Shown here: positions 1 to 33,768 of the stretch, in pieces
Layout of the letters: every line of letters starts with the position of its first letter
Position numbering within the stretch: position 1 is the stretch's first letter
NCBI GenBank assembly: GCA_000999395.1
Contig: LCOM01000015.1
Location: 1 to 34,912, forward strand
Reading direction: 5' to 3'
From: Parcubacteria group bacterium GW2011_GWA2_47_7
GTDB taxonomy: Bacteria > Patescibacteriota > Minisyncoccia > Phycocordibacterales > UBA6899
Length of the DNA: 34,912 nt
Program-made: the position numbers and the translations under genes
The notes under the pieces: model-generated
What the model saw: the letters and a program-made list of their open reading frames with translations, nothing else
The model's database searches: none
What the model was told of the DNA's origin: nothing

Positions 1-373
1 ATGTTTGTGCCTCCCAAAGCATGTCGACTTCTGCGGGCGCGATAATGAATTGTTTATTGACGGTGAGTCCCTCAGTGGTGATAATGACAACATCAATAGT
101 GACTTTTTCGCCAAAGTCCCCCGTACGAAGAGTAAGCGATGTTTCTGCTGTTCCATTCTTTATAGGCTCCTTGTTGACATACCACGTGATATTCGCCGTT
201 CCTAAATTCACCGCGTACGAATTCATGGTCACGAGGACGCTTTCATTTGCCCCCGGCGTCTTTGGGGTTGTTGAGAAGGTAATGAGATCAAAAGCCGCAA
301 AAACTGTTCCCGGTAATAACACCCATAAGAGTGGAAATAAGGCAATAAGGAAAGATGTTTTTATAGAACTCAT
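1..373 (-). CDS. secreted protein of unknown function, N-terminal part only (ORF runs off the left edge)
   Basis: Absent from the ORF track because it has no stop in the window. ATG at 373..371, and my hand translation stays open to base 2: MSSIKTSFLIALFPLLWVLLPGTVFAAFDLITFSTTPKTPGANESVLVTMNSY... The N-terminus is signal-peptide-like. The ATG overlaps the TGA of the upstream gene (ATGA at 370..373), suggesting translational coupling. Confidence 0.6.
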   Translation of the reverse strand, partial: MSSIKTSFLIALFPLLWVLLPGTVFAAFDLITFSTTPKTPGANESVLVTMNSYAVNLGTANITWYVNKEPIKNGTAETSLTLRTGDFGEKVTIDVVIITTEGLTVNKQFIIAPAEVDMLWEAQT

Positions 374-843
374 ATTTTAGATAATACTTTCTTGCCAATC
401 TTATTTAGGGCGACCGCGACTGGAACTTTGCTTAATACTTTATCGGCAATTCGTCCCACCATAAATGCGACTACAAACGTGAACGCGGTGAGTGGAAGAG
501 CATTCAGTATGGGTATAGCATCTATTATACCGCCTATACTCACTACCACAAGTCGTAAAAAGAATTTCCCGCCAATAATGTAGAAATAAATAAGGAAGGT
601 GAAATTTATGAACAAAAGCGTTATTTTGTTGATGATTTCACTAAGTACACCTAGTGGTATTCCGACCGGTGCAAGAACGACTGATGTGCTTATCACGGTA
701 CCAACAGCATCGAGCAGCACACAAACTATATCGACCAAGTCTTTCCCTATCGCAAGTCCGAGCACCAGAAAGAAAAAAAGGTATCCCCCACGAAGTTTAG
801 CTTTTGTGGGTTTTTCGATAGTTTTTTCTTCAGTGTTTGCCAT
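370..843 (-). CDS. small polytopic membrane protein (about 4 hydrophobic segments), unknown function, last internal gene of the T4SS-like locus
   Basis: 157-aa ORF with a charged N-terminus (KPTKAKLRGG) followed by long hydrophobic stretches. The antisense + strand ORFs here have low-complexity, junk-like translations. A -10-like TATAAT (850..855, minus sense) lies 6 nt upstream of the ATG. Confidence 0.6.
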   Translation of the reverse strand: MANTEEKTIEKPTKAKLRGGYLFFFLVLGLAIGKDLVDIVCVLLDAVGTVISTSVVLAPVGIPLGVLSEIINKITLLFINFTFLIYFYIIGGKFFLRLVVVSIGGIIDAIPILNALPLTAFTFVVAFMVGRIADKVLSKVPVAVALNKIGKKVLSKI

Positions 844-1138
844 ACCTATATTATAGCGTATCGTCGCTCAAGAGTGGTCTTTTTATTCGAAAACTGTTGA
901 TAAAATAAAGCATTGGTTCCTGTAGAAAAATACTCGTAGTGAGCTATTTTTGAGCTCATATTTTGGTAAATCGTTGGTTCTGCGATATTCACCCCAAGTG
1001 AGCAATGAACATGTTTATGCCTTCTAGTGGCAAATACGCAATGCACTGCTTGTTTGTCAAAATTTCCCTAAAAACAATTTTGCATTTTATGAGTAAGCAG
1101 CAAAAGTCGTGAAACAATGACTTGATACTTCAATATTA

Positions 1139-2815: not shown

Positions 2816-2820
2816 AGGTA

Positions 2821-3465
2821 TTACATCACCGACGACTCAAGTTCGCCAGGGTTAAATTTCTTGTAGAAGAGCTCAGTTATTTCTTCGGTGCCAAGACGAA
2901 TAGTGCGTAGGTCGCAGCGCGCCAGACCCTGCTCAACGATTGATGCGCGTTGTTCGAGCTGTACCCGCGCTTCTTCAAAAGAGCGGGTCTCGTCGGCGGT
3001 CATTTTTTTGTGTGCGGTCTTTTTTCCAAAAAGCCCAGAAAGAGCGCTCTCGGCACCGGCCTTGGATACATTTGATCCTCCGGAATAGGGAATTACGATG
3101 AAGAAGTTTTTAGACATGATGTTGGTGCGGCTGGTGAAATCACGAATGAAAGAAACGTATTCGTGTACTTGAATCTTCATTGCATCAATAAGCTGCGCTT
3201 TCTCTCTCTCTTCGAGCATTTTGATGTACGGTTGTATATCGAGTCGTTTCGATTGAATAGATATCTGAATAGGAAATTCAAGAGAATTCAGTACGTTTTG
3301 AAACTGCATCAAAATTGCCCCTTGCTCGTCGCCGGATTTTAATCCAAAGTTGAGCGAACTTGTCATCAGCATCATACGCAGATCTCCGTTGTTTAGGACA
3401 ATGACACCATTTCGGATGTCACGGATTGGGATAAAGTCTTGCGTTGGTTTTCCTGGGGTGGGCAT
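2821..3465 (-). CDS. VirB4 N-terminal-domain-like protein (separate ORF directly upstream of the ATPase)
   Basis: TQDFIPIRDIRNGVIVLNNGDLRMMLMTSSLNFGLKSGDEQGAILMQFQNVLNSLEFPIQISIQSKRLD resembles the N-terminal region of Gram-positive VirB4/PrgJ-type proteins as I recall them. I chose the ATG at 3465 (MPTPGK...) because the longest ORF (start 3549) would overlap the upstream gene by 70 nt. The start is uncertain. Confidence 0.55.
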   Translation of the reverse strand: MPTPGKPTQDFIPIRDIRNGVIVLNNGDLRMMLMTSSLNFGLKSGDEQGAILMQFQNVLNSLEFPIQISIQSKRLDIQPYIKMLEEREKAQLIDAMKIQVHEYVSFIRDFTSRTNIMSKNFFIVIPYSGGSNVSKAGAESALSGLFGKKTAHKKMTADETRSFEEARVQLEQRASIVEQGLARCDLRTIRLGTEEITELFYKKFNPGELESSVM

Positions 3466-3479
3466 GAGTTTATTATAGC

Positions 3480-3935
3480 TTATATGAGAGCTGAATTCGA
3501 GTGCGGATTTTCGGGCTCCATCTTCTCGTTCTTGAGATTCATACTCCACGAGAGATCACTGAGTTTATTTCCTGCCCCCGAAATGGGTAATGTGCCGACG
3601 TGTATGGTCGTTTGAAAATTATTAAGGTCAAGCTCGGTGGGCAAAACCCGATTGTCTCTTCGTTTCCATACATAGAGTCGCGCACTTTTGATATAGGTGA
3701 AAGCCGATTCAATCATGTTCGCAAAGGGTTTCTTGTTCGGTTTATAGAATCCGAGCGCTCCTCCAAGTGCGAGAAACCCAAGGCCAATGATGTATTCGAA
3801 TCCAAAAAAACTAATAAAATAGTAGCTCATGTATGCGAGACCCACACTTCCTGCAATATAGAGAAATTGTTTTATTGTGAGTGGTCCGATGACCTTATCC
3901 TCAACATCAAGAAATTGTGGTATTTGGAATTGCAT
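3480..3935 (-). CDS. PrgI-family / VirB3-like small membrane protein
   Basis: 151 aa. The N-terminus MQFQIPQFLDVEDKVIGPLTIKQFLYIAGSVGLAYMSYYF fits the PrgI-family signature (short polar lead, GPLT.+Q, then two TM helices). It sits directly upstream of virB4, as in Gram-positive conjugation loci. Confidence 0.6.
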   Translation of the reverse strand: MQFQIPQFLDVEDKVIGPLTIKQFLYIAGSVGLAYMSYYFISFFGFEYIIGLGFLALGGALGFYKPNKKPFANMIESAFTYIKSARLYVWKRRDNRVLPTELDLNNFQTTIHVGTLPISGAGNKLSDLSWSMNLKNEKMEPENPHSNSALI

Positions 3936-4095
3936 AGATCAGTAGTTAGTGGTCATCAGAAAAGAGGATTCTCGTCAGACTACCGCAGAATTCAGTATAT
4001 AATATCTCATTAAAATAAGTAACCGCGCAGCAACACTTTTCTCTCGGTGCACGCTTCCCGATCTCTAGTGACAAAGGACTAGTGACTGACCGCTA

Positions 4096-4569
4096 CTACA
4101 CTGGCTCCCGATACGAGTCGGTAATTTTTGGCGCAGCATTCGAAGGTGGGGGTGGAACAGAGAGTGTCGGACTGACTTCGGCATTTTCCTCTGATACGGG
4201 ACGGCTTATACGGAAAGCTCCACCGAGCTTCTGTTCCAGAATGCTTCCTTGTGGCGGTGGTGGAGGGATTGGTGTTGCGAACGAGATATCACGAGGGGCA
4301 GACACGAGACCGTCTGGTACTGTTATTTCCGACATTTTTTTTCCTAGATGAATTTCCGACAGCGCATCTTTTACCTCTGCAAAAATGTCATGATTGATAT
4401 CTTGGGCGATTAAAATCGCAGTCTTCTCTACTTTGGTGAGTTCGTATTTTTTTCCGATTGCCACAGTTTTGTCTTGCCGCTCACCCGCCTGCAAAAGCTC
4501 CTTGATCTCCGGAGGGAGTGTCGGGGATATTTTCCCTATTTGTTCTACTGTGATGTCATCAATGTCCAT
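4096..4569 (-). CDS. hypothetical protein with a proline-rich C-terminal half
   Basis: 157-aa ORF, 12 nt downstream of the VirB6-like gene on the same strand. It contains PPPPP tracts (ATPIPPPPPQG, SVPPPPSNAAP). I recognise no family. Confidence 0.5.
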   Translation of the reverse strand: MDIDDITVEQIGKISPTLPPEIKELLQAGERQDKTVAIGKKYELTKVEKTAILIAQDINHDIFAEVKDALSEIHLGKKMSEITVPDGLVSAPRDISFATPIPPPPPQGSILEQKLGGAFRISRPVSEENAEVSPTLSVPPPPSNAAPKITDSYREPV

Positions 4570-4581
4570 GGTTTTCTATTA

Positions 4582-7500
4582 TTATATGGCTGCGTCATCC
4601 TCTTCCCCACCCACATCGTCAGTTGATGATTCACCATAAGACGAATCCGATTTCTTTGCCTTCTCCCACTCCGCTCTCATCTCGGCTTCCTTTATCTCTG
4701 CTGCTTTGTGTGCCTTTTCCAAATCCCCAACCCTACCGGCTAAATGGGGAGTTTTTGCTCTCGCATCGTCTGCCGCGGCCTTTGTCGCTGCTGTTGCCTG
4801 TTGAGCCTTCGTGTATGCGGACTCCTTTACATCCGTATCTGTCTTTCCGCCGAATATCCTTGCACCCTCGGTCGTTCTCATGTATTTCTTTCCAGCGGTT
4901 GTGCCTTTGAACGTGATCGTCTTGTCTGTTCCATCCGCATTTTTGATAATGTTTCCTCTTTCGTCTCTGACGCTCATACTCCCCCCTGCAACCTTCACAC
5001 GTAACTCGGCTAAGCTTTGCTGGGTTTTCGAATCCCCGAGATCCCCCTTGATCTGTTCATGATATTTTGCCATTTCCTCAAGATGTTTTTGAGTGTAATT
5101 GGTGGCAAGCGTATCTTCATTCCTGAGTTCAATGGGGAGTCTCGCAACTTCCTTCGGCTTCATCCCACCGAGAATATCCTGAACGGCGCTATCATGATCT
5201 TCTTTGAGTTTCAGTTTCGCCTCGCGTACCCACTCAGTATCTTCGACGGCCTGGAGTTTATCAAGTTCATTCATTTCTGACTTATATTGATTAACCCTAT
5301 TTCCTAATTCATCTCCTAGTTTTACTTGTAAATGCCCTGTGTTCAGTTTTGACTGAGTGATGAGGTATCCGCGTCCGTCCTCAGTTCCTTCAGTCATGAC
5401 AGTGTGCGTCATGTCCTCTTTCGTTTTTTGGTCAAAGAGTTCAGGGTTTGAGTTGACGTGCATAAGTGCGGTGCGTCCCATTGCTGCCATGATCTCGGGG
5501 TGTTCTGTGATCAGTTTCTGACTCACAGTATCTTCGAACTCCTTACCGCTTAATTGTTTTATCGAGTCTCCGAGTGTGTCCATGTGATCACCTAACGTTT
5601 TCTGAAGTTTTTCAATTTCCTCAACACTTGCGGTCGCTCCCTTTGCCTTCTCGTCGGCAAGTTTATTTTTGGTGGCAGTAATTTCATCAAGCAGAGGCCC
5701 TTTTTGATTTCCGTCAGTATCGACGTACTCTTTATTGCCTACAATCTTTGTATGTTTCTCTATTGTGCTTTTTCTATCGAGTTCTTTCTTTAGATCCTTG
5801 TTGCGTTTCTGGTCGAGTTCAACACCTGTATCTTCCAAGAACGTCTTCTGTGCCGTCACATTAGCACCATAACGGGATTTTGATTTTTCGATGAGCTCCT
5901 TCTCTTTTTCTGTTCCGCGATAGGATGCTCCCTCTCGTGATCTGATGGCACCAAGTTTTACTTTTGCTGCTGCGCCGTCTACCCCGCCTGCTGCAATTCG
6001 ATCCTGCAGTGCCTTCACCTCGTCTGGGTCTGCTTTGTATTTCGTGATAACTGAGCTCCCGACCGCGCCATGCGTTTCATAGCTTCTCTTACTTCCCTGC
6101 CCAGCATTCACTCCGGCGGCGCCCATTGCACCAGCGATGCCAAGACCCTTCATTGGTGCATTGCGTACATCAAAGGTTCCCTTACTTGCCGCCTGTGCTG
6201 AGGCAAGTTTAATGTTTGCCATTTTCTTTTGAGCCCATGTTCCGTTTGCTGCAAGGCGATTTTGCTCCGCCACCCAATCCTTGTCTTGCATTTTGTTTTT
6301 ACCATACCGACCTCCCGTTTGGCGGCCGGCAGCCGCAATTCCCGTAAAGCCAGACCTCACTCCCTTGCCCAATCCTTTCTTTGCCCACGCCCCCGCAGTA
6401 CTTCCTGCACCGCTACTCACGCTGTTTGCGACAGAGAGCGCTCCGAGTAAAAGAATAATAAGGAGGATAAAATTGTAGAAAATACTGTAGTTAGCCGCAT
6501 TTCCGGTAAATGCCGCAGCAAGACTTGATGTCGTGCCACCGGTAAGTATCGTTGCATCAATACCATTGATGATGAGTGAGTCGAGATAAAGCATTGCAAG
6601 AAAAGCCGGTGCAACAAAAGTGCTTCCGATGAGTTTTGTAAGCCATTTATTGCCCCACCCACCTCCGACGGGAAGCGCAAAACCCAAAAAAGCAAATGGC
6701 GATACGATCATAAGAAAAAGAAGAGTCACCGTGCGGATGATCATCATAATGGCACCTGCAAGAAAAACGTAACCAGCAATGAACATGACGATAGAGCCCC
6801 CAAGATAAATGAGCAGCTTGTTTGTTTCTGTAAATTTTACACCACCTGGATCAGAACCAGTCTGGTCTATGCTGTCAAATATCGTCTGCATGCGAAATCC
6901 TTTCAGGAAGTTCTGAGCCACACTCGGTACTGTGCCGGAAGGCGACCCTGAGATGGCTGGAACAGGAACAGTGATTTTCTCCCAAAAACCCATTGCGAGA
7001 ACATTTCCCGCATCAATCACCACTTTTGTGGCGAAGAGACTGAAGTTGATAAGAAGGGCGGCGATGATAAGGTGGGCAACCCAGCGCTTGGTACTGCCTC
7101 CGCCCATGCCGAGAATGGTTTTGATGGCGATGTAGAGAAGCGCAAAAATGAAGAACATATTCGAAAAATCACGCACGGCAGTCCATCCAACGTTGACAGC
7201 AGCAAGATTTGCATATGTCGCGGAATTAATCGTTCGTTCGATTGAAAAGTCTAAAATGGTTGCCATTGATTCCATAAAGAATCCAGCCATTTTGGAGAAT
7301 AGCCAAGCGAGTCCCACTATGGGCTTCATTAAGACCGTCCCAAGACCATCTGCAACCCAATCGATGAGTGTACCCCCCGCATTTTTTAATGTTTTCCACC
7401 AAGACTCACCCTCTCCTACTGTGGGTGTTATATCAATACATGTTTCTGAAGGAGCTTTTGCACTATTACACGCGGCTATGGTTGAAAAACAGCTAGCTGT

Positions 7501-7677
7501 TTTTGTCGTTTTAATACAGAAATTACCACCCGGCCCGGCGGGAATGGGGGCGGTAGCAGTGATTGCCGCGATTGCAACGCCGACAGGAAATAGAACTTGC
7601 AATGCAATGCCAGACCCAATGAGGAATGCAATCAATCGACTTTTCTTTTCTCTGTGTAGTGTGGGAGTTTTAAACAT
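4582..7677 (-). CDS. VirB6/TrbL-like polytopic membrane protein with a long (~560 aa) charged C-terminal extension
   Basis: 1031 aa. An N-terminal TM/signal segment is followed by a Cys-containing extracytoplasmic stretch (NFCIKTTKTASCFSTIAACNSAKAPSETCID). Residues ~110-470 hold roughly 7-9 hydrophobic helices. The rest is a Lys/Glu/Ala/Gly-rich hydrophilic tail ending in an acidic tip (GGEEDDAAI). The VirB6 call rests on topology and context only. Confidence 0.6.
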   Translation of the reverse strand: MFKTPTLHREKKSRLIAFLIGSGIALQVLFPVGVAIAAITATAPIPAGPGGNFCIKTTKTASCFSTIAACNSAKAPSETCIDITPTVGEGESWWKTLKNAGGTLIDWVADGLGTVLMKPIVGLAWLFSKMAGFFMESMATILDFSIERTINSATYANLAAVNVGWTAVRDFSNMFFIFALLYIAIKTILGMGGGSTKRWVAHLIIAALLINFSLFATKVVIDAGNVLAMGFWEKITVPVPAISGSPSGTVPSVAQNFLKGFRMQTIFDSIDQTGSDPGGVKFTETNKLLIYLGGSIVMFIAGYVFLAGAIMMIIRTVTLLFLMIVSPFAFLGFALPVGGGWGNKWLTKLIGSTFVAPAFLAMLYLDSLIINGIDATILTGGTTSSLAAAFTGNAANYSIFYNFILLIILLLGALSVANSVSSGAGSTAGAWAKKGLGKGVRSGFTGIAAAGRQTGGRYGKNKMQDKDWVAEQNRLAANGTWAQKKMANIKLASAQAASKGTFDVRNAPMKGLGIAGAMGAAGVNAGQGSKRSYETHGAVGSSVITKYKADPDEVKALQDRIAAGGVDGAAAKVKLGAIRSREGASYRGTEKEKELIEKSKSRYGANVTAQKTFLEDTGVELDQKRNKDLKKELDRKSTIEKHTKIVGNKEYVDTDGNQKGPLLDEITATKNKLADEKAKGATASVEEIEKLQKTLGDHMDTLGDSIKQLSGKEFEDTVSQKLITEHPEIMAAMGRTALMHVNSNPELFDQKTKEDMTHTVMTEGTEDGRGYLITQSKLNTGHLQVKLGDELGNRVNQYKSEMNELDKLQAVEDTEWVREAKLKLKEDHDSAVQDILGGMKPKEVARLPIELRNEDTLATNYTQKHLEEMAKYHEQIKGDLGDSKTQQSLAELRVKVAGGSMSVRDERGNIIKNADGTDKTITFKGTTAGKKYMRTTEGARIFGGKTDTDVKESAYTKAQQATAATKAAADDARAKTPHLAGRVGDLEKAHKAAEIKEAEMRAEWEKAKKSDSSYGESSTDDVGGEEDDAAI

Positions 7678-7683
7678 ACAATC

Positions 7684-9225
7684 TTATTGTCCTGAGTATC
7701 CGGTGTCTACAGAATCATTACCGTCAGTTACAACAACAGCAGTACTTGTTGGGTCAAACTTCATTTCATCATAAATCATAAGCATGGTTCCTTCTGCCCA
7801 TTCACGAGTATCTTGATGAACACCAAAATACGCGATATCTATGGCGTCATAAAATTCTTTAATTAGTTCTGTTACAGCAGTCTGACTTATTTGTAGTGGG
7901 GTCGTATCGTATCCAAGCAATCCTGATTGAGCTATTTCCGTTGTTTGATTCTCGGACGCGTTTCCTGCGCCCGCATCAAGAGTTTTTGTGTCACGTACTT
8001 GCTGATTACCACTTCCCGCTGAGTCTCCAATACTGCGCCCTATTTCGCCGGATGGTGTGACTGCCGTTGAGTTTTGCTGTTCAAGGCAGTAGGGATCATC
8101 AGGTCTCCCTGAGCACTCTTTTGCACTCGACCAACCAGTTGAGATCATATCACCCTTCTTCGCTTCCTCTTGGGCAATCATTCTGTTTTGAGCCATCATA
8201 TCTCCTAGCGTTGCTGCGCCAAGGGGTGAATTGGGTGCATCGCGAAGCATTGTGCCAAAGGTCATAAATCCACCTCCCTTACTAGCTGGATCATCATAGT
8301 TTTGCATGAATTTCTGTGAATCACCAACATTCATGTAATCAGTAAAATTTGATTGCGTGATAGACATTGTATAGTTGAACGGGTCTTCGGCCAGCGAACG
8401 TTCATTATTTGCCATATTGGCCACCGTATTAGTGCGCCAGTCGGGAAATATCCCCCATGAGCCAGCGGGATTTCCTGAGGTTGGGTCTGCGGCAGCTTGG
8501 TCAAGTGCGTGGTCAAGTTGACGTGACTTTACGTCGTAGATACTTTGAGATGGATTTGTATAGTAAAGGGCATTGGTTGAAACAGCACCATTGTTGTTCA
8601 CCGTATTTCCTTGGTTCCCATAATTTATGTTCGCCGCGGAAATCTTATTCATTAGCTGATTGTTGAGCTGTGCGGTCTGTGCGTCGGCAATATAGGACTT
8701 GAGTAATTGATGTATCTGAAGAGAAAGTCCAAGTTTTTGCCACTCTACTTGTTCTGTAAGGAGGCAGCGGAGAGATTGGCTGTAGTTGACTTGAACATAG
8801 CCTCCGCCTTTCGGGATTGTCTTCGGAAGCGGAGTTGGATATAGGGCGGTGGCGTCCGATGAGCTTGCCCATGGACCATAGGTATAGGCAAATGCATCAT
8901 ATATACCATGTCCAGGTCCAGCATCAATATTATCCCCCCTCTTGCACTCACCCCCCGCCTCTGCCATCGTTAGGTCGTAGTCCGTAATGAGGTTTTTCAG
9001 AGAATCCGGATCATTCTTGAGGATATTGTCCATATTCTTTGCATAGGTATCGAATTTTGTCGCATATGCACCAAAGTCGGAGATGAGTTGAGCATCATTG
9101 ACGGGCACGTATTGCGCGCTTGCAATTGTGGGCGCAATGAAGAGTAGTGCAAAACAGGAAACGGTCACATAAAACATATTTATCAACAATTTCCCCGCAT
9201 TCATTTTTTTATTATACATGGTCAT
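7684..9225 (-). CDS. secreted protein of unknown function (signal peptide, Asn/Gln/Ser-rich)
   Basis: 513 aa. N-terminus MTMYNKKMNAGKLLINMFYVTVSCFALLFIAPTIASAQ is a signal peptide with an ASA-Q site. There is a 6-nt gap to the downstream VirB6-like gene. Confidence 0.6.
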   Translation of the reverse strand: MTMYNKKMNAGKLLINMFYVTVSCFALLFIAPTIASAQYVPVNDAQLISDFGAYATKFDTYAKNMDNILKNDPDSLKNLITDYDLTMAEAGGECKRGDNIDAGPGHGIYDAFAYTYGPWASSSDATALYPTPLPKTIPKGGGYVQVNYSQSLRCLLTEQVEWQKLGLSLQIHQLLKSYIADAQTAQLNNQLMNKISAANINYGNQGNTVNNNGAVSTNALYYTNPSQSIYDVKSRQLDHALDQAAADPTSGNPAGSWGIFPDWRTNTVANMANNERSLAEDPFNYTMSITQSNFTDYMNVGDSQKFMQNYDDPASKGGGFMTFGTMLRDAPNSPLGAATLGDMMAQNRMIAQEEAKKGDMISTGWSSAKECSGRPDDPYCLEQQNSTAVTPSGEIGRSIGDSAGSGNQQVRDTKTLDAGAGNASENQTTEIAQSGLLGYDTTPLQISQTAVTELIKEFYDAIDIAYFGVHQDTREWAEGTMLMIYDEMKFDPTSTAVVVTDGNDSVDTGYSGQ

Positions 9226-9231
9226 ATGTTG

Positions 9232-9456
9232 TTATTGAATAGGTGGCACTGCGTATGTTGTCTGCGCAATGATATGAGTGAAGGGATACCCCGGTTCATT
9301 TTCGGTGAAAACAATTCCATGAGTGCTCAGGAATGAAACGACTTCGCTGTATCCTTTTGTTACATCAAGCCGAGTTTTTGTATATGTTTGGTATCCCGCG
9401 GCTCCGTTTATTGGGTCTGAAAAAAGATGTTGCATGCCGAGAAGCCCTCGCGACAT
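9232..9456 (-). CDS. small hypothetical protein (start uncertain)
   Basis: The ORF track gives a GTG start at 9474 overlapping the upstream stop. The first ATG is at 9456 (MSRGLLGMQHLF...). It sits between two operon genes with 6-14 nt spacers. It could also be a frameshifted tail of the upstream gene. Confidence 0.35.
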   Translation of the reverse strand: MSRGLLGMQHLFSDPINGAAGYQTYTKTRLDVTKGYSEVVSFLSTHGIVFTENEPGYPFTHIIAQTTYAVPPIQ

Positions 9457-9470
9457 ACCGTCGTAGCCGT

Positions 9471-10097
9471 TCACGATAATGTCTTCAGTCCATCCGCAAG
9501 AATTTCCTCTTCGGTGCGAAGTGAGTGTACCGAGGTATATTTATCAATAATGATGCCGAAGGCATTTCCATAGGCACGAAGTGCTTCGGGGCTATTATCT
9601 CCGGTGATATTGAGATCTGCATATTCATTGGTGGGTGTATATTTTTTTGGGTTAAAGCCCTTAATGAGGTCACGATAAGTGGTTTCACGAATTTCATCAC
9701 CCTGTGCAGCGAGAAACTTCGTAAAAAATTCTTTGCGGAGTCCGTCAACATCGGTCGAGGAGGTCGCAAAGTTCGGATCTTGGATTAAGACGAGTTTATC
9801 ATTTGGGCCAACTATCGTTGGGTTTCTTCCCACTGCGACCTCGATTCCGTCCAGCGTTCCATCTCCATCGCTGTCCGAATTGAGGGGGTCGCTTCCATAG
9901 ACATTCTCTTCCCAGTCTGAGAGTCCATCATTATCGGAATCAATTTCCGAAAAGTCCACAGGTTCATTTGTGTCTACTTGCTCGGAATCTTGTTTGTAGA
10001 TTGGTGTACGATTCATAAAAAAACCAACACCAATGATGGTGAGCGCAAAAAGGCCACTGAGTATCAAATTTTTGTGTGGAAAGTTTGAAAAGTCCAT
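9471..10097 (-). CDS. membrane-anchored protein with thrombospondin type-3-like Ca-binding Asp repeats; first gene of the T4SS-like operon
   Basis: DSDNDGLSDWEENVYGSDPLNSDSDGDGTLDG is a TSP3-type D-x-D-x-D-G repeat. There is an N-terminal TM segment (LILSGLFALTIIGVGFF). I chose the ATG at 10097 because AGGAGG lies 6 nt upstream (10104..10109 on the complement). The track start at 10112 is an upstream in-frame ATG immediately 5' of, and abutting, that SD (the SD forms its next two codons). Confidence 0.7.
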   Translation of the reverse strand: MDFSNFPHKNLILSGLFALTIIGVGFFMNRTPIYKQDSEQVDTNEPVDFSEIDSDNDGLSDWEENVYGSDPLNSDSDGDGTLDGIEVAVGRNPTIVGPNDKLVLIQDPNFATSSTDVDGLRKEFFTKFLAAQGDEIRETTYRDLIKGFNPKKYTPTNEYADLNITGDNSPEALRAYGNAFGIIIDKYTSVHSLRTEEEILADGLKTLS

Positions 10098-10127
10098 GGG
10101 ATTCCTCCTCATTGAAAATGCTCTATC

Positions 10128-22894: not shown

Positions 22895-24517
22895 CTACAC
22901 TCCGGGTTTTGGAGTGGGGACGAAGCGCTTTGGTGCGGTGCCGTTGTCGCCGTCGCGGTGTTCATTGATGACTTTTGCGTCATGCTCATTTGGTTTAATG
23001 AAATTCACATCGGCGCGTTTGATGGAGAGATTTATGCGTCCCTTATCGTCGACTTCTTTCACGACAACGGGAACCTCCATCCCCTCTTTCATGTAATCGC
23101 TGACACGGTCGATACGGAAGGACGCCATCTCGGAAACGTGAACAAGACCTTCTGCGCTAAATCCGATTTTCACAAAAGCGCCGAAGTCCATGAGGCGCGT
23201 CACCACACCCTTGAATATTTCTCCTGCGACATATTCATGTGTCATCTCGGCGATGATATCGCGTGCTTTTTCTGCGGAACCATTCTTGCCGGTGCAGAAG
23301 ACGGTACCATCATCTTCGATATCAATTTCAGCCCCTGTCTGCTCGCGGATTTCATTGACCGTCTTCCCTCCTGAGCCGATGACCATGCCAATCTGGTCGG
23401 GCTTAATCTTGATGACGACAATCTTCGGTGCGTACGCTGAAATATCTGTGCGCGGTGCCGCAATCGCAAGCTTCATTGTTTCAAGAATAGTGAGTCGTGC
23501 CGCCTTTGCTTTTGCAAATGCTTCTTTCAAAATAGGAAGAGGTATTCCGCCGACCTTCACGTCCATTTGAATCGCGGTCACACCATTCTTTGTTCCTGCC
23601 ACCTTGAAGTCCATGTCGCCATGATGATCCTCTGGTCCTTGAATATCCGTAAGCACTTTGTATTTTGATTCCGTTTCCATCATGAGTCCCGATGCGATAC
23701 CTGCGACAGGCTCCGTGATGGGGACACCGGCATCCATGAGCGCGAGTGTCGAGCCGCAGACTGATGCCATTGAGGTTGAGCCGTTCGAGGCCATTGATTC
23801 GGATACAATACGAATCGTATAAGGAAAAATATCTTTTTCGGGAAGAACGGGTATGAGCGCTTTTTCCGCGAGTGCACCGTGGCCGATTGCGCGGCGATTC
23901 ATTCCACCCATGCGTCCAGTCTCTCCGGAAGAGAATGGGGGAAAGTTGTAATGATGCATGTAGCGCTTCTTTCCTTGTACCTCCATACCCTCGAGTATCT
24001 GTGAGTCTTGAGGGCCACCCAAGGTGAGCGCCGAGAGCACGTGTGTTCCTCCACGATAGAAGATTCCTGTACCGTGAAGCACAGGTGAGACACCTCCCGC
24101 CTGTGCGAAGAGGGGTCGTACATCATCAAACCCACGACCATCAGGGCGCTTGCTGTCGTTGATGGCCTTGTCGTGCAGAAGGTCATTCACCATGTCATCA
24201 AAATATGCCTCTGCGAGCTTGTCGCTCATACCCTCTACTTCTTTGACGTAGCCAAGCCACTCTTCCATGAGTGCATATTCACTGGCGCGCCCTGCCGCAC
24301 CCCAGATGGTGCTCTCAAATTTTGCACTAATTTTTTCTTTGAAGAGTGCTTTGATATCCTCACCAACATCCTCAAGTACGATAACACGCTTTGCTTTTCC
24401 GCGTTTCGCTACGATCTCCTTCTGAAATGTTTGTAGTTTCTCGATCTCCTTGCTTGCATAAGCGAGTCCTTCCATGATGACATCCTCAGCAATTTCTTTT
24501 CCGCCCATTTCAATCAT
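22895..24517 (-). CDS. pnp: polynucleotide phosphorylase, C-terminal 540-aa part (end of first RNase PH domain, alpha domain, second RNase PH, KH, S1)
   Basis: MIEMGGKEI...; RPDGRGFDDVRP; HYNFPPFSSGETG; SESMASNGSTSMASVCGSTLALMDAGVPI; DIQGPEDHHGDMDFKVAGT; KH domain IGMVIGSGGKTVNEI; S1 domain GVVTRLMDFGAFVKI...GLVHVSE. Confidence 0.85.
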   Translation of the reverse strand: MIEMGGKEIAEDVIMEGLAYASKEIEKLQTFQKEIVAKRGKAKRVIVLEDVGEDIKALFKEKISAKFESTIWGAAGRASEYALMEEWLGYVKEVEGMSDKLAEAYFDDMVNDLLHDKAINDSKRPDGRGFDDVRPLFAQAGGVSPVLHGTGIFYRGGTHVLSALTLGGPQDSQILEGMEVQGKKRYMHHYNFPPFSSGETGRMGGMNRRAIGHGALAEKALIPVLPEKDIFPYTIRIVSESMASNGSTSMASVCGSTLALMDAGVPITEPVAGIASGLMMETESKYKVLTDIQGPEDHHGDMDFKVAGTKNGVTAIQMDVKVGGIPLPILKEAFAKAKAARLTILETMKLAIAAPRTDISAYAPKIVVIKIKPDQIGMVIGSGGKTVNEIREQTGAEIDIEDDGTVFCTGKNGSAEKARDIIAEMTHEYVAGEIFKGVVTRLMDFGAFVKIGFSAEGLVHVSEMASFRIDRVSDYMKEGMEVPVVVKEVDDKGRINLSIKRADVNFIKPNEHDAKVINEHRDGDNGTAPKRFVPTPKPGV

Positions 24518-24936
24518 GAGACCGCAAGCGCGAGTGATGCACCGTTTACTGCGAGAATATCGGGCTCATCTTTATCGATTGCGAGTACGGTGATGACGAC
24601 CTGCACATCGTAGCGGATACGTCCGTCAAAAAGCGGTCGGATGGTGCGGTCGATAATGCGACCCGAGAGTACCGCTGCATCTGATGGTCGGCCTTCACGG
24701 CGCATGAAGCGACTGCCGAGGATCTGCCCTGCGGCATAGAAACGCTCCTCGTAATCAACCGTGAGTGGAAAAAAGTCTCCCCCTTCTCGCTTCTTGTTTG
24801 ACATCACTGTCGTCGCGAGGATGACGGTGTTTCCGTAACGGAGCATCACCGAGCCATGTGCTTGGTCTGCGAGGTCGTTAAATTCTGCGGTGAGCATCTT
24901 CCCTCCGATCTCAATCTCATATGTTTCTTTTTTCAT
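24514..24936 (-). CDS. pnp: polynucleotide phosphorylase, N-terminal 140-aa fragment (separate ORF)
   Basis: GDFFPLTVDYEERFYAAGQILGSRFMRREGRPSDAAVLSGRIIDRTIRPLF...DILAVNGASLALAVS* matches the PNPase N-terminus. The stop TGA overlaps the ATG of the next ORF (ATGA at 24514..24517). Confidence 0.8.
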   Translation of the reverse strand: MKKETYEIEIGGKMLTAEFNDLADQAHGSVMLRYGNTVILATTVMSNKKREGGDFFPLTVDYEERFYAAGQILGSRFMRREGRPSDAAVLSGRIIDRTIRPLFDGRIRYDVQVVITVLAIDKDEPDILAVNGASLALAVS

Positions 24937-28015: not shown

Positions 28016-28031
28016 TGTTTCTCGTGAAACA
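28016..28031. promoter_or_regulatory. parS-like ParB-binding site
   Basis: TGTTTCTCGTGAAACA has 1 mismatch to the parS consensus TGTTNCACGTGAAACA. It lies in the 38-nt xerC-xth spacer. Degenerate relatives sit at 28002..28015 and 27969..27984. Confidence 0.6.
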
Positions 28032-29759: not shown

Positions 29760-31247
29760 CTATTTCACTCCGTATCTTTTCCGTATCTCACCTACTTCTG
29801 CTTCTTCTTTTTCTTCCTTCTTTTCCTTTCCTGCTTCACCGAGTTTTTCAAGTTCTTTTGAGTCTAGCTTTATCAAGTCCTTAGCGCGACCCTCAAGATA
29901 TTCGGAAGTGTTTCGTTCGGGAATATCGAGGACTTCATTAAAGAGTGCATGGAGAATCCACCCAATCTCTCGCCCCGGCTTAATGTCGAGTATTTTCATA
30001 ATCTTTGCGCCGTCAATCTTCAGCATGCCGACCGACACCGGTGCGCGCATCGCTTCTTCGATCATCGAGTGATATTTGCGCAGTCGATATGGCGTCTCCT
30101 TTGGGCGCCCCATACCGATACGATCGCATGCACGAACATCCATGAGATCCCATACGCGCTCCGGTCCAACATTTGCCACAATGCGACGAACTGCAGAAAG
30201 CGTAATCTTTTCGATGTCCGAAAAAAACAAGTGGTAGCGCACGAGTAGTGTAACGTCTTCGACGAATTTTTTAGGGAAACGCAATCGTTCAAGAATTTTC
30301 TTCGCCATGCGACCACCAACAACGTCGTGTCCGTAGAATGTCCAGTCTTTTTTCTCATCCGACCATTTGCGCGTGTGTGGTTTTGCTACATCATGGAGGA
30401 GCGCTGCCACGCGTACATGAAGTGGCCAACCCCGTTCCTTCGCGTGTTCAAGTGCGCGAAGATTGTGCTCCCACACTTCATAGATGTGGTCACCATTTTG
30501 CTCACAACCCAAACCCGCTTCAAGTTCGGGAATAATATATTTCAACACTCCGGTGCGATGAAGAAGGATAATGCCCTCCATTGGTCGATCAGACATGATA
30601 ATCTTCTCAAATTCATCACGGATGCGCTCCGCGGCAATGTGATCGAGGCGATGTGCAAATTCTACAACGGCACTCATTGTTTCCATCTCAATAGCAAATC
30701 CAAGCTCCGCACCAAAACGTACCGCACGCATGACGCGGAGTGCGTCCTCGTGGAATCGGTCGGATGGCTTCCCCACTGTCTTGATGAGATGTCGCTCAAT
30801 ATCACGCTCGCCATCATACGGATCGATAATTTCTTTTTTTGAAACGCTATATCCAATCGCATTCATAGTGAAGTCGCGTCGCAAAAGATCGTCTTCAAGT
30901 TTCCCGGAGAATATCACTTCATCTGGGTGGCGAAAATTTGTATACGTCGTTTCTTTGCGGTATGGAGTCACCTCAACAACACGCATACTTCCCCGGTTGG
31001 TATCATCTTCCGTGATATCCTCGTTTACAACACCGACGGTGCCGTACTCATTTTCGTAAAAAGTTTTTGGAAAAAGTGCAATAATTTCATCTGGAGTGGC
31101 ATTCGTGGTGATGTCCCAATCTTTTGGTGCGACACCGCGATAGAGGTCACGCACGCATCCCCCAACAAGGTATGCCTCAAAGCCTGCGCGCTCCAGCGTA
31201 CCGGTTACATGAGATATTTCCGACGGAATGGTGAAGTGTCTTGACAT
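29760..31247 (-). CDS. cca: CCA-adding tRNA nucleotidyltransferase with C-terminal HD domain
   Basis: 495 aa. YLVGGCVRDLYRGVAPKDWDITT (pol-beta NT motif); RRDFTMNA; EDALRVMRAVRF; HD region LLHDVAKP...GHD. The tail is Lys/Glu-rich. Confidence 0.85.
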   Translation of the reverse strand: MSRHFTIPSEISHVTGTLERAGFEAYLVGGCVRDLYRGVAPKDWDITTNATPDEIIALFPKTFYENEYGTVGVVNEDITEDDTNRGSMRVVEVTPYRKETTYTNFRHPDEVIFSGKLEDDLLRRDFTMNAIGYSVSKKEIIDPYDGERDIERHLIKTVGKPSDRFHEDALRVMRAVRFGAELGFAIEMETMSAVVEFAHRLDHIAAERIRDEFEKIIMSDRPMEGIILLHRTGVLKYIIPELEAGLGCEQNGDHIYEVWEHNLRALEHAKERGWPLHVRVAALLHDVAKPHTRKWSDEKKDWTFYGHDVVGGRMAKKILERLRFPKKFVEDVTLLVRYHLFFSDIEKITLSAVRRIVANVGPERVWDLMDVRACDRIGMGRPKETPYRLRKYHSMIEEAMRAPVSVGMLKIDGAKIMKILDIKPGREIGWILHALFNEVLDIPERNTSEYLEGRAKDLIKLDSKELEKLGEAGKEKKEEKEEAEVGEIRKRYGVK

Positions 31248-31253
31248 AGTGCT

Positions 31254-31262
31254 ATCTTACCA
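31254..31262 (-). promoter_or_regulatory. extended -10 TGgTAAGAT, 6 nt upstream of the cca ATG (leaderless-type)
   Basis: The minus strand reads TGGTAAGAT-agcact-ATG. Confidence 0.4.
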
Positions 31263-31267
31263 ATTTT

Positions 31268-31296
31268 TTGATTTTTCGCGAGTAGTATTGTAGAGT
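31268..31296 (+). promoter_or_regulatory. candidate promoter TTGATT-17-TAGAGT for tRNA-Arg
   Basis: TTGATT at 31268..31273 and TAGAGT at 31291..31296. The tRNA starts 22 nt downstream. Confidence 0.4.
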
Positions 31297-31317
31297 TTGT
31301 CGTGTAAGTGAAATTAC

Positions 31318-31389
31318 GCTCTCGTAGTGAAATGGATATCACGACTGCCTTCGAAGCAGTTATTGCAGGTTCGAATCCTGCCGGGAGCA
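31318..31389 (+). tRNA. tRNA-Arg (anticodon TCG)
   Basis: Hand-folded cloverleaf: acceptor GCTCTCG/CGGGAGC, D arm GTGA-AATGGATA-TCAC, anticodon arm ACTGC-CTTCGAA-GCAGT, variable TATT, T arm GCAGG-TTCGAAT-CCTGC, discriminator A. CCA is not encoded. Confidence 0.9.
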
Positions 31390-31390
31390 C

Positions 31391-31435
31391 AAAAGCGTTT
31401 AAGAAAATCTCCCCTACAGGAGATTTTTCGCTTTT
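31391..31435 (+). terminator. compound hairpin / terminator after tRNA-Arg (repeat copy 1)
   Basis: Outer stem AAAAGCG...CGCTTTT, inner stem AAAATCTCC-cctaca-GGAGATTTT. T-rich 3' side. Confidence 0.6.
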
Positions 31436-31437
31436 AT

Positions 31438-31552
31438 GCTCGCGTAGGAAGCCAACAGTTTTGCTTCCGAAATGATTCGAAAGGGATTTCGTTATTGAGT
31501 CTGCGAGATCGAAATCCACCCGCGGCGGTAGCCGAGAATCTTGCCGGGAGCA
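31438..31552 (+). pseudogene. decayed tRNA-Arg paralogue (tRNA-like, 115 nt, does not fold as a cloverleaf)
   Basis: Shares with tRNA-Arg the 5' GCTC(G)CGTAG, an ATTCGAA anticodon-loop-like block, GTTATTG, two T-arm-like blocks (GCGAGATCGAAATCC; GCCGAGAATCTTGC) and an identical 3' acceptor CGGGAGCA. Confidence 0.5.
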
Positions 31553-31553
31553 C

Positions 31554-31598
31554 AAAAGCGTTTGAAAAAATCTCCCCTGCAGGAGATTTTTCGCTTTT
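31554..31598 (+). terminator. compound hairpin / terminator (repeat copy 2)
   Basis: Near-identical to 31391..31435 (AAAAGCGTTTGAAAAAATCTCCCCTGCAGGAGATTTTTCGCTTTT), 163 nt downstream of copy 1. Confidence 0.55.
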
Positions 31599-32115
31599 GC
31601 GAGCCATGGCGATGTTTCAAAAAAATAGTCATTCTGACTTTATTGAAACCACAAGGGTGGGGTCTCGTCCTATTTAGAATGCACATAGCCTGCATAAGTT
31701 ACAAAAAACACCAAGAGATATATTTCCTAGCTGTTATTAATGTGGCAGAAAATGTATCAGTCGCAAGGTAACTCCCAATATCGAACCACACCCATCCGCC
31801 TTCCATGGAAGTGAGAATATGCCATATTAACCAGGTCGATGACATTAAAACAAAAAAGAAGACATCCTAAAAAGAGTACCAGCAATGTTTAAAACATATT
31901 TATCCTTCAATTTGCAGCTAGTCAATCCACAAAAAACAATACTCGAATTCAAATTATTGCAAGGAAATTTGGTTCGGATCGTCCAAAAATTTATATATTA
32001 ATGAGAAATTTAAGTTGTCGGAATTAGTGCCTCTGTGTTTCCTGGGGTAATACAGTAGGCCCGATAATTCAGGGTAAAATGGGACCAGTAAGAAGTGACT
32101 GAGGCTACTATTCTG

Positions 32116-32186
32116 TGCGGGCAGGGAGAATCGAACTCCCGTCTCAACCTTGGCAAGGTCGTATTCTACCACTAAACCATGCCCGC
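32116..32186 (-). tRNA. tRNA-Gly (anticodon GCC)
   Basis: The minus strand reads GCGGGCA-TG-GTTT-AGTGGTA-GAAT-A-CGACC-TTGCCAA-GGTTG-AGAC-GGGAG-TTCGATT-CTCCC-TGCCCGC-A. It closely parallels the B. subtilis tRNA-Gly(GCC) layout as I recall it. CCA is not encoded. Confidence 0.9.
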
Positions 32187-32281
32187 AAATTTGAGTATCA
32201 CCATCCTATCGGATATTGCGAATTAATTCAATGTCAACAGAGTGTACATTGCTAAAATATGAGATTATGATCCAACATCCA

Positions 32282-32346
32282 TTATCCACACCCCAGTTGT
32301 ACAATATGTGCATAACTGTGGATAACCCTGTGGAGACTGTGTATAA
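32282..32346. promoter_or_regulatory. cluster of five DnaA-box-like 9-mers (candidate oriC core)
   Basis: TTATCCACA (32282..32290, perfect). The other four are in the opposite orientation: TGTGCATAA (32307..32315, 1 mismatch), TGTGGATAA (32317..32325, perfect), TGTGGAGAC (32329..32337, 2 mismatches) and TGTGTATAA (32338..32346, 1 mismatch). Confidence 0.55.
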
Positions 32347-32476
32347 AGGACAGTCCTATAGACGGTTAGTATGTCCTTTATGAATAAGATAGGGCTACGC
32401 GACCGTGAAATGTCCTAAAAACACGTTACAACGTAACATATTCGCCAACAGTACATGTATCACAGACAAAATAGCG

Positions 32477-32492
32477 CGTTTCACGAGAAACA
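32477..32492. promoter_or_regulatory. parS-like site
   Basis: CGTTTCACGAGAAACA, 2 mismatches to TGTTNCACGTGAAACA. Confidence 0.5.
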
Positions 32493-32507
32493 CTGCATAT
32501 TCTGCTG

Positions 32508-32516
32508 TGATATACT
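32508..32516 (+). promoter_or_regulatory. extended -10 TGaTATACT, 7 nt upstream of the GTG at 32524 (leaderless-type yraN promoter)
   Basis: TGATATACT-gtttcac-GTG. The last base of the -10, the predicted TSS and the start codon all lie inside the parS-like site 32516..32531. Confidence 0.4.
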
Positions 32517-32531
32517 GTTTCACGTGAAAAC
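32516..32531. promoter_or_regulatory. parS-like site overlapping the yraN start
   Basis: TGTTTCACGTGAAAAC: the first 14 nt are perfect, with 2 mismatches at the 3' end. Confidence 0.55.
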
Positions 32532-32916
32532 TCCCACAAAAAAACAAAAGACAGGTAAAATTGGCGAAGATTTGGCTGAAAAGTTTCTTATGAAACGCGG
32601 ATTTAGCATTATTCAGCGTAATTATTTGAAAAAAGTGGGAGAAATAGACATTATTTGTGAGAAGGGCCGTAAGTTGTACTTTGTTGAGGTAAAAACCGTT
32701 TCACGTGAAAACGTTTCTCGTGAAACACTGGATGACTACCGTCCGGAAGACAATCTTCACTCGCACAAGATACAGCGAATGGGAAGAGCCATTGAGATCT
32801 ATCTTGAGGAGCGAAATGTAAAACAAGACTGGGAGATACTCGGTGTCATGATTTTGCTTGATTCTAAGGCAAAACAGGCAAAAATCACATTGCTCGAGAA
32901 TTTTGCGTGGATATAG
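32524..32916 (+). CDS. yraN: YraN/UPF0102-family endonuclease-like protein
   Basis: GKIGEDLAEKFLMKRGFSIIQRNYLKKVGEIDIICEKGRKLYFVEVKT fits the YraN pattern (GE..A..yL...G..i...N.....GEiDii......l.FVEVK). The GTG at 32524 gives 130 aa, typical for the family. The alternative ATG at 32455 adds a Cys/His/Phe-rich 23-aa N-terminus that looks non-native. Confidence 0.7.
   Translation: MKTPTKKQKTGKIGEDLAEKFLMKRGFSIIQRNYLKKVGEIDIICEKGRKLYFVEVKTVSRENVSRETLDDYRPEDNLHSHKIQRMGRAIEIYLEERNVKQDWEILGVMILLDSKAKQAKITLLENFAWI
32697..32712. promoter_or_regulatory. parS-like site inside the yraN coding sequence
   Basis: CGTTTCACGTGAAAAC, 3 mismatches, with a perfect central 12-mer TTTCACGTGAAA. Confidence 0.45.
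32712..32727. promoter_or_regulatory. parS-like site inside the yraN coding sequence, abutting the previous site
   Basis: CGTTTCTCGTGAAACA, 2 mismatches. It shares one base with the site at 32697..32712. Confidence 0.5.
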
Positions 32917-32932
32917 CGTTTCACATGAAACA
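32917..32932. promoter_or_regulatory. parS-like site immediately after the yraN stop
   Basis: CGTTTCACATGAAACA, 2 mismatches. Confidence 0.5.
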
Positions 32933-32976
32933 ATTATTTGCTGACCTTGAGTCTTCGTAATTTTTATATAGAAAAG

Positions 32977-32992
32977 TGTTTCTCGTGAAACG
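32977..32992. promoter_or_regulatory. parS-like site
   Basis: TGTTTCTCGTGAAACG, 2 mismatches. It is the same variant as 28016..28031 and the reverse complement of 32477..32492. Confidence 0.5.
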
Positions 32993-33111
32993 CTTTTGTT
33001 CTGGGTGACTCAAACCGCGTTTAAAGCTTTGAGCAATTACCATTTTTCAATATGGCAAATACTGCCCTGTTGAAAATACTCGTAATACGTAAAATGTTAC
33101 ACGATTATCCG

Positions 33112-33127
33112 TGTTACACGTGAAACG
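33112..33127. promoter_or_regulatory. parS-like site
   Basis: TGTTACACGTGAAACG, 1 mismatch. A half-site TGTTACACG lies at 33095..33103. Confidence 0.6.
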
Positions 33128-33448
33128 GAAATCAAATTGAGTCTTTGTCGTCAGTAATTAAACAAATTTTGATATGATGTGGGTGAATTTGGTTGTGTAT
33201 TAGCGGTTGGTGTTCATTCCACAAGTAAAGTATTCTTCTCTGCACGTTATTTGTGGAGTATGCACTGATGGTAAAGATTGAACAGATTAGAAATATGTTT
33301 TAGTCGTCGGTGATTCAGTTTTGCGTTACGTCTTGTTGTAGTGAGATGTCACCTCTCACATCTATGAAATTTCTGCAGGCAGGGAACTGATTGTCCTTCC
33401 GGATAAATATACACTATAATAGTAAAAAGTGAGTTTTACATGAAGCAC

Positions 33449-33477
33449 TTGCATTATTTCATAATCTGTGATATAAA
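33449..33477 (+). promoter_or_regulatory. promoter TTGCAT-17-(TGa)TATAAA, 6 nt upstream of the ATG at 33484 (leaderless-type)
   Basis: TTGCAT at 33449..33454, a 17-nt spacer ending in TGA, TATAAA at 33472..33477, then aatatt-ATG. Confidence 0.55.
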
Positions 33478-33483
33478 AATATT

Positions 33484-33768
33484 ATGACTGATTCGAAGCG
33501 TACCGAATTGACCCTGAGAGCTAAAGAGATCATTCATGGTTCGCACCTTTCCACTGCGGACAAGACGCTCCTTGAGGGTCGCGTACTGTTTATTGCAGAT
33601 TCGATGCTTGAAATGTTTGTACAGGTCTGTGATGAAGATCCGTTTGGTGTTGATGCCGTCGTAAAGAGTTTGAAAAAGAAACTCGAAGCAGGTGGCAATT
33701 TAAAGAGTATTCACGAAATTATTAAGCAAGAACGTCGGGAGATAGAAGAGTCATTAGCAATAGGATAA
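33484..33768 (+). CDS. small hypothetical protein (94 aa, helical/charged)
   Basis: The only sizeable ORF here, with the well-formed promoter directly upstream. The next ORF starts 6 nt after its stop. No family recognised. Confidence 0.5.
   Translation: MTDSKRTELTLRAKEIIHGSHLSTADKTLLEGRVLFIADSMLEMFVQVCDEDPFGVDAVVKSLKKKLEAGGNLKSIHEIIKQERREIEESLAIG

Follow-up and report, generated by a model that had tools for sequence, protein, structure and literature searches.

An array of parS-like sites in and around yraN, a putative origin-proximal centromere in a Parcubacteria-type bacterium

The array and its host gene

The 34,912-nucleotide stretch of DNA analyzed here and called the window below (contig LCOM01000015.1 of Parcubacteria group bacterium GW2011_GWA2_47_7) carries a dense array of parS-like sequences, resembling the sites bound by the partition protein ParB, that is built into and around yraN, a gene of the UPF0102 family of PD-(D/E)xK nucleases. 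This DNA comes from a 67-kb scaffold of groundwater origin (Rifle), of which it forms the 35 kb at the right-hand end, and agrees with ENA scaffold_951 at 99.9–100% identity, scaffolding gaps aside; the nearest named relatives of the host are the Candidatus Lloydbacteria. According to Livny 2007, as cited in PMC7333895, ParB has the 16-mer TGTTNCACGTGAAACA as its site throughout the bacterial phyla, in positions near replication origins. We scanned both strands of the window for this 16-mer with up to three mismatches, taking the chance expectation from 100 shuffles, and also for its 14-bp core GTTTCACGTGAAAC with up to one mismatch. The first scan returned 16 strand-matches, compared with 1.22 ± 1.31 in the shuffles, and the second eight sites against 0.02 expected.

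Seven 16-mers, each with one to three mismatches to the consensus, lie within 651 bp. All seven starts given in a preliminary description of this DNA, which had been prepared from the sequence alone, were recovered both by direct reading and by the scan; an eighth site, at 28016, is absent from that list and is the lone outlier in the other 34 kb of the window. The same description put the chance expectation at far fewer than one site, which holds at a stricter cut-off only, the 16-mer scan giving the shuffle values above; an expectation of fewer than one site is right. A half-site reported at 33095 is indeed present, as is a GTTAC-AAC-GTAAC palindrome, located one base to the right of the interval originally assigned to it (32424 to 32436). 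The sites and their host gene are as follows.

28016 to 28031: eighth, outlying site, TGTTTCTCGTGAAACA; one mismatch; between the stop of an xer-like recombinase gene and the start of exoIII
32425 to 32437: palindrome GTTAC-AAC-GTAAC; reads like parS minus one central base
32477 to 32492: site 1, CGTTTCACGAGAAACA; two mismatches; 47 bp upstream of the yraN GTG; TCTCG variant on the opposite strand
32516 to 32531: site 2, TGTTTCACGTGAAAAC; its central GTG (32524–32526) is the probable yraN start codon
32524 to 32916, plus strand: yraN; 130 amino acids from the GTG; the mechanically called open reading frame begins at the ATG at 32455
32583 to 32596: decayed intragenic site A, GTTTCTTATGAAAC; three mismatches; encodes F-L-M-K
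32697 to 32712: site 3 (intragenic site B), CGTTTCACGTGAAAAC; codes for V-S-R-E-N, which follows immediately on the catalytic EVK
32712 to 32727: site 4 (intragenic site C), CGTTTCTCGTGAAACA; codes for V-S-R-E-T, located in a surface loop modeled with low confidence
32917 to 32932: site 5, CGTTTCACATGAAACA; begins on the base right after the yraN TAG stop
32977 to 32992: site 6, TGTTTCTCGTGAAACG; with its flanks a perfect 19-nucleotide inverted copy of site 1; 60 bp beyond site 5
33095 to 33103: half-site, TGTTACACG
33112 to 33127: site 7, TGTTACACGTGAAACG; one mismatch if consensus position 5 is taken as N; 195 bp beyond site 5

The array wraps yraN, with sites upstream of the gene, over the start codon, at two places in a segment that codes for a loop, immediately after the stop and, for sites 6 and 7, in the 567-bp spacer downstream. 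Four of the seven sites, together with the one at 28016, are entirely noncoding, two are inside the gene and one is over its start. Since YraN homologues are 129–130 amino acids long and begin with MK, translation most likely starts at the GTG at 32524, and the protein itself is intact, as its conserved catalytic GEIDI and EVK motifs are invariant. An AlphaFold model of YraN (mean predicted local distance difference test score, pLDDT, of 84) has the VSRENVSRET peptide encoded by sites 3 and 4 begin in the last residues of the EVK strand and continue in a loop of low confidence (residues 62–73), a permissive position in the protein.

The core of the motif is CACGTG. Their start-to-start spacing is irregular (39, 181, 15, 205, 60 and 135 bp) and no larger repeat unit can be recognized; sites 3 and 4 have one base in common. 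The two perfect 19-nucleotide inverted copies that contain sites 1 and 6 with their flanks (32476–32494 and 32975–32993) bracket yraN at a distance of 480 nucleotides and could have arisen by site duplication during expansion of the array. As for the outlying site, xer and exoIII adjoin in 24 relatives, just one of which was found to have a comparable sequence, and the 28016 site is accordingly considered lineage-specific.

Conservation of the sites as DNA in related genomes

A comparison of the locus in related genomes, which the preliminary description had proposed, shows that the sites are enriched at yraN and kept as DNA. The comparison was an alignment-based scan with one genome per GTDB species and covered 80 yraN loci from metagenome-assembled genomes of the Paceibacteria/Parcubacteria type, some of them deposited under the label 'Candidatus Saccharibacteria'. 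Within 700 bp on either side of yraN, parS cores with at most one mismatch occur at 0.86 per kb, as against 0.040 per kb in the other 1.07 Mb of these 80 genomes' loci. The enrichment is about 20-fold (21-fold) relative to all flanks and about 190-fold relative to DNA more than 4 kb away, where three parS-like sites are found in 656 kb (Poisson P ~1e-224). Outer positions 1 and 16, which played no part in the core search, show a preference for T/A (57%), which is also that of the 16-bp parS, and perfect copies of TGTTTCACGTGAAACA are present at orthologous positions in several relatives, for example L017, L018, L025, L026 and L036.

When positions are anchored on the EVK codons, the sites of the relatives pile up at three to four fixed places, namely at or upstream of the start codon, where a parS over the yraN start recurs, at the FLVK codons and just after EVK. 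The last two are in coding sequence, and the choice of codons there carries a clear imprint of the site. Among 27 exact VSRE motifs in the relatives, the arginine codon is CGT in 26, as against a genomic background of 19% (P = 4e-18), the valine codon GTT in 25 (background 35%) and the glutamate codon GAA in 25, and serine is never encoded by AGY. As a control, all six arginine codons occur at the conserved arginine of the YRPEDN motif in YraN, CGT accounting for 10%. Where the peptide itself has changed, to VSCE, VSHE, VTRV, VTHV or VPRV, the DNA remains a parS-like palindrome, e.g. GTTACACGTGTAAC. Because the VSRE codons are fixed to the parS spelling and the palindrome is kept despite residue changes, selection acts on the DNA. 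At the position of site A, relatives carry TTT CTC GTG AAA (F-L-V-K), which is parS with one mismatch, and the valine is GTG in 15 of 17 cases (background 22%); this site has decayed to FLMK in the window. The recurrence of the TCTCG variant at the FLVK position is explained by the protein, as a perfect site would place histidine at a hydrophobic position. These are, in sum, parS-type sequences, strongly non-random and maintained by selection at the DNA level.

Most relatives have one or two sites associated with yraN, and arrays occur in the closest ones: there are 11 core sites in ~1.1 kb in L015 (13 by the 16-mer scan with up to three mismatches), seven in L018, of which five are perfect cores, six each in L014 and L017, and five in L013 and L016. 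On the basis of this distribution, the seven-site array is a clade-specific expansion of ancestral yraN-anchored parS, that is, an expansion in the Lloydbacteria clade of a set that ancestrally comprised one to three sites at yraN. Both this expansion and the fact that the array is built into and around yraN were missed in the preliminary description.

The chromosomal synteny of the locus is kept in 65 of the 80 genomes. On the left it is bordered by cca, the gene of the CCA-adding enzyme (29760 to 31247, minus strand), which is the conserved divergent neighbor of yraN. The cca coding sequence of the window is without parS-like sites. Yonathbacteria- and Nomurabacteria-type lineages (L019, L029, L037, L057, L061, L071, L075 and others) have such sites inside cca at recurrent positions, 1–3 kb upstream of yraN, one example being CGTTTCACGAGAAAC near the 5' end of the gene. 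In a separate clade (L022, L027, L028, L033–L035, L041, L046 and L090), the block exoIII-xer-rpsO-NYN-pnp-comM is inverted and lies on the other side of yraN, an order that points to an inversion with its breakpoint at the cca|yraN unit.

A putative centromere and its alternatives

The array has three of the features of chromosomal parS: a match in sequence, a location near the origin and conservation as DNA elements. The gene order jag-yidC-yidD|dnaA-dnaN is found 5–7 kb to the left of the window start, which puts dnaA (protein KKU79390.1) ~38 kb from the array; in L064, L089, L048 and L060, dnaA-dnaN lies 1.5–8.5 kb downstream of yraN, and the array is origin-proximal in all cases examined. 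Judging from these sequence features, we consider it fairly likely that the array is a chromosomal centromere, a zone of putative ParB nucleation sites anchored on yraN, and the locus is probably an origin-proximal centromere bound by ParB. As canonical parS is conserved across the class, some protein must read it. A survey of candidate phyla radiation (CPR) genomes lists the ParBc/K03497 family in 1717 genomes, compared with 1985 for GyrB, 1688 for UPF0102, 1010 for ScpA and 1006 for ScpB (PMC6744442, Supplementary Data 1; Méheust et al.). Given this wide occurrence of the family, ParB is likely to be encoded elsewhere in the host genome.

By analogy with established ParABS biology (PMC7333895), from which these steps are taken, a canonical ParB made elsewhere in the genome would bind each site as a dimer, close as a clamp dependent on cytidine triphosphate and slide to the flanking DNA, building a partition complex that would then be moved by ParA and/or would load SMC-ScpAB. 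Many close, sub-optimal sites could jointly provide a high loading rate at one place in a very small genome. As the sites cover the promoter region and the start codon of yraN, ParB occupancy might also damp the expression of this gene.

Several observations weigh against a ParB-bound centromere. The preliminary description saw no parB in the window, and this is confirmed: Pfam recognizes no ParB domain among its 29 long open reading frames, and six-frame tblastn with Spo0J and Soj probes gave no match in the window or within 10 kb of yraN in the 80 relatives. In a control, the probes matched Bacillus subtilis Spo0J (6SDK, E = 3e-121) as well as ParB, Noc, KorB and ParA structures from many phyla. 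Neither ParB nor ParA was found in 52.5 kb of the host scaffold (walked to 14,961) or, in two distant relatives, in the 10 kb on either side of dnaA. A search for the motifs GERRxxA and GxRRxx[AS] in six frames of 91 loci returned only RNase Y-like and NUDIX-like proteins, and in L013, a Lloydbacteria relative, what lies downstream of yraN is a chemotaxis operon without ParB or ParA. With respect to the sites themselves, none of the eight is a perfect 16-mer, and the overlap of sites 3 and 4 may block their simultaneous occupancy. Furthermore, the rarity of the motif was measured over a limited span, ~52 kb of the host genome and ~1.2 Mb of flanks in relatives.

Next to the array are sequences of a second type, which raise the question of its relation to the origin.

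32282 to 32346 (65 bp): four DnaA boxes, two of them perfect TTATCCACA and two with one mismatch, in the spacer between tRNA-Gly/cca and yraN

Such a cluster is found 150–250 bp upstream of yraN in the relatives as well. In the 250 bp upstream of the gene, perfect boxes are enriched 18-fold and boxes with at most one mismatch 10-fold across the 80 genomes, and this cluster is the densest window of boxes in 37 of 69 loci. The spacer could accordingly be viewed as the true origin or as a second DnaA-dependent element, forming with parS a fused origin-centromere module. Consistent with that view, the four boxes surpass those of the host dnaA-dnaN spacer (four boxes, all with one mismatch) and of the region upstream of dnaA (two boxes), the prevailing gene strand switches near 32.3 kb, with mostly minus-strand genes to its left and plus-strand genes to its right, and the inversion in one clade has its breakpoint at the locus. 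On the other hand, of the characteristics of oriC the spacer has the cluster of boxes, and the context jag-yidC-(rnpA/yidD)|dnaA-dnaN, which is universal, lies ~38 kb to the left. A dnaA/dnaN or rpmH-rnpA-yidC neighborhood is common at origins, although it is not obligatory. Fetched loci reach dnaA-dnaN in four relatives, and in two of these, L064 and L089, it is the dnaA-dnaN spacer that holds the densest cluster, with 4–6 boxes; averaged over the 80 loci, GC skew does not lastingly change sign at yraN once the effect of local gene orientation is set aside; and there are just 2–4 boxes at yraN. No AT-rich unwinding element was obvious on reading the sequence from 32190 to 32460, a region in which no formal search was made. 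Based on the box counts at dnaA-dnaN in L064 and L089, the purely local skew and the small number of boxes, those next to yraN are probably not the main origin; they are more likely than not a secondary DnaA-binding or regulatory site, their identity with oriC being unlikely, and we regard a fused module as improbable. The placement of the array beside a putative origin, as the preliminary description had it, is therefore correct insofar as the array is origin-proximal, and the adjacent boxes are probably not the principal origin. In the host as in two relatives, ~21 kb of DNA around dnaA yielded no parS-like site with two or fewer mismatches.

A more far-reaching version of the centromere reading, which we consider unlikely, would have the centromere of the Paceibacteria written into the coding sequence and flanks of yraN, spilling over into cca in some lineages, and coupled to the DnaA boxes. 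Under this proposal, parS would have shaped the sequence of YraN class-wide (FLVK, VSRE-N, VSRE-T and the start codon), with some lineages amplifying the sites to a plasmid-like density; in its strongest form, the locus would be the actual origin-centromere unit, or YraN would work with ParB.

Still less probable, in our judgment, is that the palindromes are operators for some other DNA-binding protein, a transcription factor or a ParB paralog of the Noc/KorB type, regulating cca and yraN together with DnaA in a regulatory hub. The overlap of the sites with the promoter region and start codon of yraN would fit such a role, as would the conserved DnaA-box cluster upstream, the failure to find a ParB gene nearby and the sites inside cca in other lineages. 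The consensus, however, is that of the canonical 16-bp parS including the outer T/A, with perfect copies in relatives, and its CACGTG core is unlike that of Noc-binding sites, whose consensus has a CCCGGG core. Promoter operators would, moreover, hardly account for three conserved intragenic positions and for arrays that continue past the stop codon, and there is no conserved candidate regulator beside yraN. Hardly credible at all is the notion that the likeness to parS is a by-product of constraint on the YraN protein, with the intergenic copies due to chance or small duplications: VKTVSRE..VSRET and FLVK are indeed conserved peptide motifs in the clade, and two of the seven sites are in the coding sequence with a third on the start, but the codon test contradicts it, residue replacements preserve the palindrome, most of the array and the 28016 site are noncoding, and the peptides run from a strand end into a low-confidence loop.

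The wider gene neighborhood does not bring in any obvious partner of the array, and none of the genes that follow yraN is kept class-wide. From the left, the gene order is comM, a gene for a hypothetical protein of 313 amino acids, pnp, an NYN-domain gene, rpsO, xer, exoIII and a NUDIX-like gene, followed by cca on the minus strand, tRNA-Arg, ~725 bp without annotation, tRNA-Gly on the minus strand, the DnaA boxes and the array with yraN. To the right of the array there is a small open reading frame and then a long one that is cut by the window end. The small one has the following coordinates.

33484 to 33768: orf94, encoding a small helical protein of 94 amino acids with no Pfam family

Detected only in the seven closest relatives (L012–L018), orf94 co-occurs with expanded parS arrays, for which simple relatedness may be the explanation. 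Searches for other elements gave little. Rfam, applied at the gathering threshold to the whole window and at an E-value threshold to 31200–33600, recognized tRNA-Arg and tRNA-Gly only; a scan of 31200–33600 for promoter and terminator consensus sequences produced matches at chance level only; and the ~500 bp between the tRNA-Arg repeat described below and tRNA-Gly (31600–32115) contain no open reading frame of note and no Rfam match.

Some further peculiarities of the window were observed. A 63-nucleotide direct repeat, 94% identical, occupies 31373–31435 and 31536–31598; the 3' end of tRNA-Arg together with its terminator hairpin makes up copy one, and copy two is a stray duplicate 163 nucleotides downstream, so that the pair looks like the scar of an element once integrated in the tRNA gene. 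The near-identical strain L002 has a ~42-bp deletion at 31559–31601. The polynucleotide phosphorylase gene is split into two open reading frames on the minus strand (22895–24517 and 24514–24936) that overlap by 4 nucleotides, the one of 140 amino acids being the first RNase PH domain and the one of 540 amino acids the remainder; as the independent Logan assembly L008 has the identical split, it is probably real and not an assembly error. Positions 1–10100 hold a cluster resembling type IV secretion or pilus systems (VirB4/TraG-like ATPase, PrgI, TraC-like protein and type IV secretion pilin), which adjoins jag-yidC-dnaA, and such a cluster beside jag-yidC-dnaA is found in distant Paceibacteria too (L092, L094, L098 and L099). 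The type IV secretion and xer genes of the window raised the possibility that the array is the centromere of an integrated plasmid or conjugative element; it was rejected because synteny is conserved class-wide.

Comparison with known parS systems

No description of the feature was found in the literature on parS or ParB in Patescibacteria, CPR bacteria, Parcubacteria, Saccharibacteria or Paceibacteria, or on parS in connection with YraN, and these searches turned up no published account of parS in CPR bacteria. Much of bacterial diversity belongs to the CPR, and we know of no experimental work on how they segregate their chromosomes. A landmark present throughout the class, combining cca|yraN, parS and DnaA boxes, would help to orient and check CPR assemblies. 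The array would supply DNA substrates for the study of CPR ParB proteins in vitro, including the natural variants TCTCG and CACATG, and is a clean natural example of one and the same DNA encoding a protein and, as predicted, binding another over long evolutionary time. It also bears on the open question of why the number and clustering of parS vary even though a single site is often enough (PMC7333895).

In comparison with chromosomal parS of the B. subtilis type, the sites of ParB/Spo0J, the array has in common the 16-bp palindrome, the proximity to the origin, the presence of several sites in coding sequences, the tolerance of imperfect copies and the rarity of the motif elsewhere in the DNA examined. 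It differs in that seven sites are concentrated in 651 bp instead of being distributed over kilobases to hundreds of kilobases, in the lack of a perfect 16-mer and of an adjacent parAB, in its anchoring, throughout a class, on one gene, yraN, joined in some lineages by cca, and in its host, an uncultivated CPR lineage.

Clustered chromosomal centromeres have been described in Caulobacter crescentus (PMC5815017) and in Pseudomonas aeruginosa, which has a four-site cluster (PMC4368675), and for Streptomyces coelicolor and Listeria, PMC7333895 cites reports of 20–23 sites near the origin. As in these systems, several parS are grouped near the origin into what would here be one putative zone of ParB nucleation. 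Clusters of the Caulobacter, Pseudomonas, Streptomyces and Listeria type span from several kb to ~200 kb and usually include or flank parAB. By contrast, seven sites occupy 0.65 kb in the window and up to 13 occupy 1.1 kb in L015, and parAB was not found in the 52 kb of scaffold read around the array.

Plasmid centromeres, among them F sopC and further arrays of repeats bound by ParB, are regular tandem repeats located beside their own parAB operon. The array resembles them in its concentration of ~10 sites per kb, presumably all for one protein of the ParB family, in one short segment. The regular tandem repetition and the accompanying parAB operon of the sopC-like type are not seen in it; instead, the spacing is irregular without a larger repeat unit, the motif is the chromosomal type of parS and synteny is kept in 65 of 80 genomes. 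The tightness of the array, singled out as unusual in the preliminary description, is thus real in the sense that the density is closer to that of plasmid centromeres, although tight clusters of parS are not unprecedented.

The closest parallel to a site inside a gene is in B. subtilis, where Lin and Grossman reportedly described, in 1998, a parS within the coding sequence of spo0J (parB) itself. In both cases a centromere-type site resides in a conserved coding gene, so that one DNA encodes a protein and also binds ParB, the latter being a prediction for the array. The host gene here is, however, not parB but yraN, up to four positions in or on a single 390-bp gene are involved (the start codon, FLVK, VSRE-N and VSRE-T), and the imprint of the sites at the level of codons is documented over 80 species.

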